From NCBI GenBank assembly GCA_027019335.1, contig JALUWV010000025.1, positions 19,048 through 83,047 on the forward strand: 64,000 nt of DNA. Reading direction: 5' to 3'. Each line of letters starts with the position of its first letter. Position 1 is the first letter of the stretch. The DNA is from Sulfurimonas sp. GTDB taxonomy: Bacteria > Campylobacterota > Campylobacteria > Campylobacterales > Sulfurimonadaceae. Below, one piece after another: positions 4,393 through 7,971 of this stretch. Position numbers and translations under genes: made by a program. The notes under the pieces were generated by a model, which searched no databases, was not told where the DNA came from, and was given only the letters and a program-made list of their open reading frames with translations.

Positions 4393-6342
4393 TTAGAAGA
4401 TGTATTTAAATCCAAGTTGCATATTTGAAGAGTTTGCCATTTGTCCAAAGACACCAAAGTCATCTCCACCGTAAAGATTAAGTGCGCCTGTTAAGACAAT
4501 ATCATCTGAGTAAGAGTACTCAAAGTCAAGTCTATCCCAGTACCCGCCATTGTCATTTTCTAAAAGAACGATGTTATTTACACGCAGTGCATCACCCTCC
4601 AAGAAAGGACGAGATAAGAAAAATGTGTACATAATTTGATGCTCTTCTGCTTTTTTGAAACCATTTGCAAGACTCATAGTCGCTGGGTTTGCAGTGTGTT
4701 TGCTGTACGCACGAGAGTCTCCAGCATATTGTACATTTTCATCTACATAATCAAGATTCCATTTATCCATAAACTGAAAACTCATAAATAAGTTTCGCAT
4801 AACTGTCATATCTAAACCAACAACATAGTTTAAGAAGTCTGCTTTTTTGTTTGTAAAAGCACCTGCTAAATCACCATAAGCAAGTTTTCCAAGGTCAACG
4901 ATAGGTTGGAGTGTTCCTTTGTCATAAACAATCTCACTACGAACGATGACAGGAGCAAAGTCATTATCGATAGCATAGTCAAATGAAGTACCAAAAGAGT
5001 TTACACGGTTTTGTTTTTCTGTGAAGACCATTGTTGCTCCACCTTGCGCTCCTGCCCCTGTTGGATTATATGCTGCCCGAGTTACTGCATCAACAAGGCT
5101 TATAGTCGCAGTATTTGTTGCTGCATCAACAGTAGTAACTGCATCTAAAGCTTGTCCATTTGCACCTTCCCAAGAAATATCAAATACAGGATTATTATCA
5201 TAGTGGTAGTAGTAATTAAATGTATAGTTTAAGCCTATGTCATCATTTGTCCCTGCATATTTAAAGCCTATATTTCCATTTTTAAAGTCATTATTTGGAT
5301 GTTTTTTTACATATTTTGTTTTAAGACCAATAAATGCATCAAAGGTTCCAAAAGTAGTGTCTCCCATATAGTCAAACATAGTTGTCGGGTTGTCAGTATT
5401 TAAAGTTCCACCAAATAGATTAGTTGTAGCTCCTGTTCCTTGAACTGTTTGTGCGAGTACATCGTTTCCTGAAACACCAGCCCCACCAGCATTGGGATTT
5501 GCTGCATACTGTGCTACTGTTGTAGTTTGTCCAAGGAGTGCATCTCCTAGCGGTAATCCAAAGCCAGCAGAAAATGCGGCATCAAATGCTCCTGCAACTG
5601 CTCCTAAATCTGGACCTATATTATAAAATCCATTATACTGTCCAAAAAGAGTATCTGTTCCAAGTGGAACAAATTGTTGTCCTTGGTCACCAGTTTCAGG
5701 GTTATAAAGTCCTGGGATTTGGTTCGTTACATTGACTTGTGGGACATAAATCATTTGGAATGAACTATCGTCATCTATGGCATACTCTGCGTTTAACATC
5801 CATAATGCTATACGGCTATCCTCCATAGAGTCTTGACCCCAGTGACGGAAGTCTGTTGGGTTGATGATGTCAAGAAATTTTACACCATCCGCTTTTCCCC
5901 ATACTACTTGTTGCTTACCGATTCGTAAACTCAAATCATCATTGACTGCGACATCCATATAAAGTTCGCGTAACCAATCATACTGTGAGTTTATGCGTGT
6001 CTTGTCATAACCATCTATCGCTGCCCAATCTCTACTAAAATCAAGCTCACCATGCCAACTAACATCATCGGAGAGTTCTTGATTAAGATAAAGTTTTGCT
6101 CGAACTTCAGCTAAACTTTTTGTCCCGATATTATGTCTTTGATTACTTCCATCTGCATTTTTGAGTGGGTTGTGTGTTTCACCTGCTTTCATGTAAGCAC
6201 CATAATTACCGAGTAATTCACCAGAGATATCGATTGGAAATTCATACTCTTCATCGGCATCTACATCATCTGCTAGTGCAAATGATGGGAGTGCTAAAAG
6301 TGCTACTGACGCGAGAGAGAGTGCTATTTTGTTCATTTTCAT
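4393..6342 (-). CDS. Outer-membrane beta-barrel protein, DUF1302-like
   Basis: Sec signal peptide; LRELYMD...LRIGKQQVVWGKADG..LDIINP motif of DUF1302-like barrels; C-terminal aromatic BAM signature LGFKYIF. Confidence 0.8.
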   Translation of the reverse strand: MKMNKIALSLASVALLALPSFALADDVDADEEYEFPIDISGELLGNYGAYMKAGETHNPLKNADGSNQRHNIGTKSLAEVRAKLYLNQELSDDVSWHGELDFSRDWAAIDGYDKTRINSQYDWLRELYMDVAVNDDLSLRIGKQQVVWGKADGVKFLDIINPTDFRHWGQDSMEDSRIALWMLNAEYAIDDDSSFQMIYVPQVNVTNQIPGLYNPETGDQGQQFVPLGTDTLFGQYNGFYNIGPDLGAVAGAFDAAFSAGFGLPLGDALLGQTTTVAQYAANPNAGGAGVSGNDVLAQTVQGTGATTNLFGGTLNTDNPTTMFDYMGDTTFGTFDAFIGLKTKYVKKHPNNDFKNGNIGFKYAGTNDDIGLNYTFNYYYHYDNNPVFDISWEGANGQALDAVTTVDAATNTATISLVDAVTRAAYNPTGAGAQGGATMVFTEKQNRVNSFGTSFDYAIDNDFAPVIVRSEIVYDKGTLQPIVDLGKLAYGDLAGAFTNKKADFLNYVVGLDMTVMRNLFMSFQFMDKWNLDYVDENVQYAGDSRAYSKHTANPATMSLANGFKKAEEHQIMYTFFLSRPFLEGDALRVNNIVLLENDNGGYWDRLDFEYSYSDDIVLTGALNLYGGDDFGVFGQMANSSNMQLGFKYIF

Positions 6343-7327: not shown

Positions 7328-7471
7328 TTGTGACTTTTAAGATTTAAGTTAAAATATTTTTTTATAATAAAATAACTGAAGTCACAAACATGTCACAACT
7401 ATAGTGGAAGTAATATTAAAATACTCTTAAAGTTAAGTTATTAAAAATAATAATGTGACATATGTGTAACA
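7328..7471. promoter_or_regulatory. Repeated TGTGAC(A) boxes in the divergent promoter region; putative regulator sites
   Basis: GTCACAA at 7381 and 7392 (11-bp period); TGTGACA at 7454 and TGTAACA at 7465 (11-bp period, opposite orientation); TTGTGACTT at 7328-7336 is inverted relative to AAGTCACAA at 7379-7387. Confidence 0.6.
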
Positions 7472-7550: not shown

Positions 7551-7608
7551 TATAATTTCATTAAGCAATGAGTACATTGCAAATAATATATTTTATAAAT
7601 ACAAAGGA
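7551..7608 (+). promoter_or_regulatory. sigma70 -10 box, 5'-UTR hairpin and RBS of the 98-aa gene
   Basis: TATAAT at 7551-7556; GCAATG-AGTA-CATTGC hairpin at 7565-7580; AAGGA at 7604-7608 before ATG 7615. Confidence 0.6.
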
Positions 7609-7614
7609 TTTTAC

Positions 7615-7911
7615 ATGGCAACAAACAAATTAGTAGATATCGCAGAAGCACAAATGGACGCAACAGAAGCAACAGTAGTAAATGCATTGACTGCATTAGA
7701 TACTCAAATCACTTCGGCTCGTGAAATTGGTTCTGATAAAGCAAAAGTTATCGTAAGCGGTTTTGGTGGTGAAACTAAAATGGCTGAGTTAATCGAAAAA
7801 TTAGCTGGTTATATGGGTGAAGCTGCTGGTGCTGGTATGGCTGTTGGTTCAGCTCCAATGGTAATCATGGCAGGTGCTGCTAAAGGTGTTTACAAAAAAA
7901 TTACTGAATAG
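7615..7911 (+). CDS. Small Ala/Gly-rich hypothetical protein (98 aa), probably highly expressed
   Basis: Own -10, good RBS and strong terminator; codon bias (GGT for every Gly, GCT/GCA, AAA, CGT); C-terminal GxxxG series. Confidence 0.85.
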   Translation: MATNKLVDIAEAQMDATEATVVNALTALDTQITSAREIGSDKAKVIVSGFGGETKMAELIEKLAGYMGEAAGAGMAVGSAPMVIMAGAAKGVYKKITE

Positions 7912-7934: not shown

Positions 7935-7971
7935 AAAGCCTAAAGTGATTTTCACTTTGGGCTTTTTTTTT
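7935..7971 (+). terminator. Rho-independent terminator of the 98-aa gene
   Basis: AAAGCCTAAAGTGA-TTT-TCACTTTGGGCTTT stem running into a 9-T tract. Confidence 0.9.

Follow-up and report, generated by a model that had tools for sequence, protein, structure and literature searches.

A 98-residue Sulfurimonas protein with sequence signals of very high expression belongs to a small family of predicted helical proteins that neighbours an ABC/MMPL cluster in Sulfurimonadaceae

The window analysed here, a whole stretch of 64,000 nucleotides of Sulfurimonas DNA, carries a very short gene that diverges from a block of transporter genes, and the question that it raises is what so small a protein, designated P0001, does for the cell. 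An earlier note, made from the letters of the sequence, had described an orphan protein with a glycine-zipper C-terminus and hallmarks of very high expression, which might oligomerise or coat a hydrophobic surface and might be the cargo or partner of the divergent transporter. The 98-aa open reading frame was recovered on the forward strand in the list of open reading frames and in translation (Table 1), and its composition was as described, with no Cys, Trp or His and with 19 Ala, 11 Gly and 7 Met residues. Three GxxxG units could be read from the sequence (G68–G72, G74–G78 and G87–G91), and the reported lack of a Sec signal was confirmed, the N-terminus MATNKLVDIAEAQMD being polar and acidic with no hydrophobic signal-like stretch, a character shared by all of the paralogues. 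The N-terminal half, which had been called acidic and amphipathic, is indeed acidic (net −3) and is amphipathic only moderately (hydrophobic moment 0.15–0.27).

Table 1. Positions of the P0001 gene, its expression signals and its relatives (plain numbers are window positions; G000 is the genome to which the window belongs)
Feature	Position	Strand	Basis or remark
Upstream promoter element TTAAGTTATATTTAAA	7524–7539	+	Most strongly conserved block when six orthologous intergenic regions are aligned
−10 box TATAAT, followed by conserved TTTCAnnAAGCA	7551–7556	+	Six-locus alignment
Ribosome-binding site AAAGGA, 6 nt before ATG	7603–7608	+	Read from sequence
CDS of P0001, 98 aa, stop codon included	7615–7911	+	Open reading frame and translation; short form, main Gly/Ala-zipper subfamily
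Intrinsic terminator: 14-bp stem (7935–7965), 3-nt loop, T run	7935–7971	+	Terminator scan
Paralogue P0040, 139 aa, Ala/Lys/Pro-rich N-terminus	~18.6 kb upstream of the P0001 gene		Same contig, just outside the window
Paralogue, 227 aa, 11-residue TDTVKDTATKV-type repeats	L003		Genome G000
Paralogue, second 98-aa form			Genome G000
Cys-carrying subfamily member	L004:885–1181	−	And relatives
Cys-carrying subfamily member	L003:1495–2178	−	And relatives

Codon usage was examined as a guide to expression level. All 11 Gly codons of P0001 are GGT, as the earlier note had pointed out; this codon accounts for 39.5% of Gly codons genome-wide and for 77% in a set of EF-Tu and ribosomal proteins, and the bias recurs in orthologues (75% GGT over 29 family genes). 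A comparison of codon adaptation with ribosomal proteins had also been proposed. When EF-Tu and seven ribosomal proteins were used as the reference set, the codon adaptation index of P0001 was 0.79, exceeding that of all 1362 open reading frames of at least 150 aa in the genome, with EF-Tu itself at 0.78 and L7/L12 (0.80) giving the sole higher value.

The expression signals around the gene were compared among six orthologous Sulfurimonas intergenic regions, which have diverged from each other yet retain TTAAGTTATATTTAAA, the −10 box (as TATAAT or TATACT in 6 of 6 loci) and TTTCAnnAAGCA. A word resembling AAGGA or AGGA is likewise kept at the ribosome-binding site across this alignment, so that both the promoter box and the ribosome-binding site that had been read from the window proved sound. 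The TATAAT sequence was not listed by a generic σ70 scan because it has no TTGACA-like −35 box. The terminator had been singled out as the strongest in the window; it is strong, but ranks second of 367 T-run candidates by folding energy (−17.3 kcal/mol, against −18.0 kcal/mol for the best), and its run of nine T residues is the longest among the 15 top-ranked candidates listed. The conserved promoter parts, the ribosome-binding site and the strong hairpin therefore indicate that the gene bears genuine, conserved signals for strong monocistronic expression. High abundance, as had been claimed, is supported by the top-ranking codon adaptation, by the GGT bias in orthologues and by the conserved promoter and, judged from sequence, P0001 is a real gene that is built for very high expression.

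Two further observations were made on the intergenic region. Even with up to one mismatch allowed, the TTAAGTTATATTTAAA element matches the genome at a single place, and its use as a regulon marker was thereby ruled out. TGTGACA/TGTAACA boxes at window positions 7381–7397 and 7454–7471 recur as AATGTGACA/AATGTAACA pairs in loci L014, L009 and L010; such pairs are present in the three closest orthologous spacers and absent from two more distant ones.

The description of P0001 as an orphan was not borne out. A word-indexed search returned 91 related clusters at E ≤ 0.01, a profile search against 1.84 billion representatives returned 38 clusters at 50% identity, and genome G000 was itself found to hold four family members, P0001 and three paralogues. 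The related clusters comprise short forms of 98–101 aa and long forms of 139–171 aa, and positive genomes contained from 1 to 5 matches each (2 to 5 in all but one). Shared by the family is a core made up of AR..GS, a loop (GFGGE in the main clade), GYMGE, an invariant Pro and YKKIT, ahead of which N-terminal extensions of several kinds can be found, namely basic AKP-rich tracts, 11-residue repeats, acidic Glu/Val repeats, DUF1508 and a 75-aa domain. The phylogenetic tree contains three deep subfamilies, with short and AKP-long forms interleaved inside the main Gly/Ala clade, and in two of the three subfamilies Gly residues are replaced by Cys, Ser or Thr. On the strength of these searches the family is real but small, and it is unnamed. 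Its members are probably cytoplasmic, to judge from the lack of a signal-like N-terminus and from the N-terminal fusions to DUF1508 and to AKP-rich tracts resembling histone H1.

Some details of family architecture were also recorded. In at least six clusters (P0093 and P0142–P0147; metagenome proteins) the core is preceded by the 75-aa N-terminal domain, which starts MAYKTIDGIKYEKELLDLA; this domain matched nothing in Pfam and did not resemble the N-terminal part of the ABCG-like ATPase, and a provisional "TerB-like" label was dropped. A conserved Cys stands beside the invariant Pro (as CP or C..CSP) in two of the three subfamilies and is absent from the main clade.

Named loci containing the family come from Sulfurimonas and Sulfurimonadaceae MAGs, a MAG named Sulfurimonas crateris being one of the carriers, and from Candidatus Thiovulum imperiosus and Candidatus Thiovulum karukerense. 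Homologues were found in 5 of 200 sampled Sulfurimonadaceae genomes, in 2 of 54 sampled genomes of the window's own genus, and in 5 of the 6 genomes of a Campylobacterales family taken as Thiovulaceae because it includes the Ca. T. imperiosus contig; sampling of 24 further Campylobacterales families yielded none. The family is thus rare and confined to Thiovulum and a few relatives of Sulfurimonas.

Comparison with named families and known structures gave no identity for the core. No family match was obtained in Pfam, NCBIfam, PHROGs or PADLOC, and P0001 itself had no Pfam match at E ≤ 1. When 60 members were scanned at E ≤ 1, neither DUF883 nor Gly-zipper families (e.g. Gly-zipper_YMGG) appeared among the 25 most frequent Pfam families listed. 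Scores in the ESM Atlas (0.77 and 0.75) lay under the noise level, with no usable named cluster; the family profile met only designed helical repeats and keratins among PDB sequences (E ≥ 0.007), and Foldseek found nothing in the PDB at E ≤ 0.001. A wide VIA-align search retrieved generic hairpins only, with a best Z of 7.4, which falls inside the range for any helical hairpin, and in these Foldseek and VIA-align comparisons a resemblance to the secreted helical hairpins (WXG100 and T3SS needle proteins) would be hard to tell from that background. Near-threshold matches to Phasin_2, apolipoprotein and perilipin all fell in the repeat extension of paralogues; the best Phasin_2 (PF09361) score, 24.4 bits against a cut-off of 24.9, came from the 227-aa paralogue and lay outside the core. 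The same repeat region also matches phage tape-measure and ZorA models, and these matches are therefore taken to reflect composition or helical repeats rather than homology.

Enzymes of known inclusions were searched for in the same genome. PhaC_N (PF07167) was not found in G000, while the control matched in Caulobacter; because G000 is 84% complete, this does not prove the absence of a PHA synthase. No match to WS/DGAT was obtained in G000 with a search whose control matched nothing anywhere. With neither PHA synthase nor WS/DGAT found, no known inclusion type is indicated in this 84% complete genome. P0001 is unlikely to be a phasin in the strict sense, having no Phasin_2 match in a genome with no PhaC_N.

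AlphaFold, run with 60 sequences, predicted for P0001 a helix from residue 2 to 48, a loop GFGGET and a second helix from 55 to 97 (pLDDT 76, pTM 0.56). A paralogue of 32% identity was predicted to have the same helix-loop-helix arrangement with the loop at the same place (pLDDT 60), and the other four models of each run scored lower. Given this modest confidence, the tertiary packing of the helices is unsure, the secondary structure being consistent.

Gene neighbourhoods were compared to assess the proposed tie to the divergent transporter. The gene order in the window's genus runs dUTPase_2, a 189-aa ABC ATPase, the long paralogue, a 188-aa gene, a 416-aa gene, an ABC-2 permease, an ABCG-like ATPase, MMPL, a 649-aa barrel, a LolA-like gene and, divergently, the short paralogue. 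In 5 other loci, too, the short form faces away from the LolA-like gene, and in 8 loci the long form closes this block at its opposite end. The arrangement differs in two Sulfurimonadaceae MAGs that belong to another genus, where MMPL is followed immediately, on its own strand, by both forms. The earlier note had staked its reading on homologues occurring near MMPL/DUF1302 loci, and the Sulfurimonadaceae paralogues do flank or adjoin the cluster. Strong orthologues of the barrel were present in 6 of 6 family-positive Sulfurimonadaceae genomes versus 1 of 195 others, counts that overstate independence because the positive genomes are related to each other. The one exception, the Sulfurimonas genome G128, contains the cluster without the family. 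Among the presumed Thiovulaceae, the barrel and MMPL were found in 3 of the 5 positive genomes, elsewhere in the genome, and no conserved gene neighbours were seen in Thiovulum; two genomes, G240 (closed, 1.72 Mb) and G282, encode the family and have neither barrel nor MMPL. A family gene of G240 lies at G240:C1:937757–938176. Synteny and co-occurrence, taken with these exceptions, therefore make the transporter link real within the Sulfurimonadaceae, but not obligatory.

Several features of the block itself were noted. A type I restriction-modification system (HsdM, nucleotidyltransferase, HsdS and HsdR) lies at G000:C25:9004–15103 (L042), upstream of and outside the window, and this insertion, which relatives do not have, separates the 188-aa and 416-aa genes of the conserved block. 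These two uncharacterised genes, L042:8412–8978 (+) and L042:15105–16355 (−), always accompany the long paralogue, and their products have no Pfam family. In the 416-aa protein (P0149), a DAFxFAxxT-type unit of 11 residues is repeated about eight times, and the N-terminal region is similar to the 188-aa protein. The 649-aa protein (window 4393–6342, reverse strand), earlier called DUF1302, had no Pfam or NCBIfam match at the thresholds used, and full-length orthologues of it were found in 7 of 201 sampled Sulfurimonadaceae genomes. In G128, MMPL is followed by a 106-aa protein, P0138 (L043:15158–15478), which has two apolar segments and is unrelated to the family; it occupies the slot held by the family paralogues in the two Sulfurimonadaceae MAGs of another genus.

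The reading preferred here, tentatively and with a probability of roughly one in three, is that P0001 is an abundant cytoplasmic scaffold or coat module at a hydrophobic interface. P0001 would be the short and most highly expressed member of a lineage-restricted, cytoplasmic, α-helical family, the conserved core of which (~90 residues) is predicted to fold as a helix-loop-helix. Its second helix would present a nearly invariant small-residue face of Gly, Ala and Met, broken by the invariant proline and closed by the basic YKKIT tail. A flat apolar helix of this kind could drive tight self-association, and the same helix may bind shallowly to a hydrophobic surface (monotopic, not spanning), be it the inner membrane on its cytoplasmic side or an inclusion, where P0001 would act as an abundant scaffold or coat. 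In the paralogues, the shared core would serve as the anchor and the N-terminal modules would be added to it; of these, the AKP-rich basic tract would bind DNA or another polyanion, the others being 11-residue amphipathic repeats and acidic repeats. In the Sulfurimonadaceae, the process served may be tied to the neighbouring ABC/MMPL/barrel/LolA-like system, which appears to be a type of machinery that transports hydrophobic molecules through the envelope. As the earlier note did, we infer coating or oligomerisation, and a structural role at the surface of a membrane or of an inclusion seems the likeliest function.

The layout of P0001 is also reminiscent of ElaB, YqjD and YgaM (DUF883), which are tail-anchored stress proteins of E. 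coli: common to both are a length of ~100 aa without a signal peptide, a helical N-terminal part, a C-terminal apolar helix (in P0001 a single stretch of ~20 residues with the three GxxxG units), a short basic tail and several paralogues. P0001 could accordingly be imagined as a true tail-anchored inner-membrane protein and an analogue of these proteins, in which the Gly/Ala/Met helix, perhaps in a glycine-zipper oligomer, would cross the membrane and leave the N-terminal helix cytoplasmic and YKKITE on the far side; the LEA-like 11-residue repeats of the paralogues would suit this reading. Weighing against such an anchor, which seems less probable, is the weakness of the apolar stretch AAGAGMAVGSAPMVIMAGA, the best 19-residue window of which gave +5.3 kcal/mol on the additive Hessa scale and 1.43 on the Kyte-Doolittle scale, values from a simple scale calculation rather than a trained predictor and below the usual transmembrane thresholds. 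The family medians were +5.4 kcal/mol and 1.3, and comparison proteins from the same window gave Hessa values of +1.3 (CrcB) and −1.1 kcal/mol (MMPL). Members of the two other subfamilies have either a weaker stretch or one of insufficient length (Kyte-Doolittle 0.8–1.2, with a Lys after 13 residues). The helix therefore appears too polar to be read as a classical membrane-spanning one, being far less hydrophobic than that of the ElaB group and interrupted by the invariant Pro. Transmembrane glycine-zipper motifs (GxxxGxxxG) offer a further comparison; P0001 resembles them in its three GxxxG units and in two adjacent small-residue ridges on one helix, and differs from them in that its helix is not predicted to span the membrane. 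The absence of DUF883 from the Pfam families listed above, with P0001 itself matching nothing, speaks against an anchor of this type, as does the extreme conservation of the helix, which is more readily explained by specific protein packing than by anchoring in lipid.

With no predicted membrane-inserting segment and a net charge of −3, P0001 might instead be a soluble and abundant helical oligomer for stress or storage (LEA-, CsbD- or small-chaperone-like), neither associated with a surface nor tied to the transporter, the synteny being gene order inherited within one bacterial family. The presence of the family in G240 and G282, where the cluster is missing, the lack of conserved neighbours in Thiovulum and the relatedness of the positive genomes, the co-occurrence counts of which are not independent, are all in keeping with this. 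It seems doubtful, however, since the family adjoins the cluster in two different gene arrangements, strong barrel orthologues are confined to family-positive genomes and one other, and an all-round apolar Gly/Ala/Met helix would be unusual in a monomeric soluble protein. Very improbable is an exported peptide, whether as a precursor cut after G51–G52 to free a 46-residue glycine-zipper pore former or bacteriocin, or as cargo of the adjacent ABC/MMPL system. A GG pair does precede the conserved C-terminal half, the same block encodes an ABC transporter, and the gene is small and, by its codon adaptation, highly expressed; the pair is lost, however, in two of the three subfamilies, the hydrophobic positions before it do not fit the generally known pattern of double-glycine leaders, and the N-terminal half is conserved and carries extensions of 40–190 residues, unlike leader peptides. 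The neighbouring ABC ATPases show only ABC_tran and no C39 peptidase, so that neither a double-glycine-leader bacteriocin precursor nor the pore-forming peptide mooted in the earlier note finds a C39-type exporter nearby, and MMPL systems, to our knowledge, carry lipids and not proteins.

Returning to P0001 as a scaffold or coat, a parallel is offered by PhaI and PhaF of Pseudomonas, a short and a long phasin that share a binding domain, the long one having an AAKP DNA-binding tail (PMC5658603, PMC7590123). By analogy, the short and long forms described here would pair a small, abundant, helical protein with a longer paralogue that has the same binding module and adds a basic, histone-like Ala/Lys/Pro tract, an amphipathic or apolar helix providing the binding surface in each case. 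The systems differ in that the cores have no sequence homology, the basic tract is C-terminal in PhaF and N-terminal here, and no PHA synthase was found in G000. The family resembles known coat or anchor proteins in how it would work, and belongs to none of them.

A second comparison is with SgpA–D of Allochromatium vinosum. These are, as P0001 would be, small and abundant structural proteins of a sulfur oxidiser, and the P0001 family is found in 5 of the 6 presumed Thiovulaceae genomes; the globules are extracytoplasmic (PMC10386293), in contrast to the lack of a signal peptide here. Because Thiovulum stores sulfur inclusions (PMC9938260) and Sgp homologues are not known in Sulfurimonas, which keeps soxCD (PMC7952632), it is attractive, if quite improbable, to suppose that the family provides the missing envelope or scaffold proteins of intracellular elemental-sulfur or other hydrophobic inclusions in the Campylobacterota. 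In this picture, the coat would consist mainly of the short form, the AKP-rich long form would tether inclusions to the nucleoid and the neighbouring transporter would move substrate across the envelope, making the family a cytoplasmic counterpart of the Sgp proteins without homology to them. Loss of SoxCD from family-positive genomes, as expected of sulfur-storing bacteria, was ruled out, SoxC being present as in most relatives.

Should the scaffold or coat reading hold, an undescribed structural module without a family name would be the product of a gene that ranks among the most strongly expressed in these sulfur oxidisers, and gene order would connect it with an uncharacterised transporter that handles hydrophobic molecules at the envelope. 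It would offer a handle both on the handling of hydrophobic material in the Campylobacterota, in which no sulfur globule proteins are known (PMC7952632), and on the role of the MMPL/LolA-like cluster; were P0001 a generic stress protein, the interest would be local only. As a minor observation on the genome itself, the rplW–rplB segment was found to be near-identical on two contigs of G000, C81 and C46, a sign of strain heterogeneity or of a duplication in this MAG of 116 contigs.
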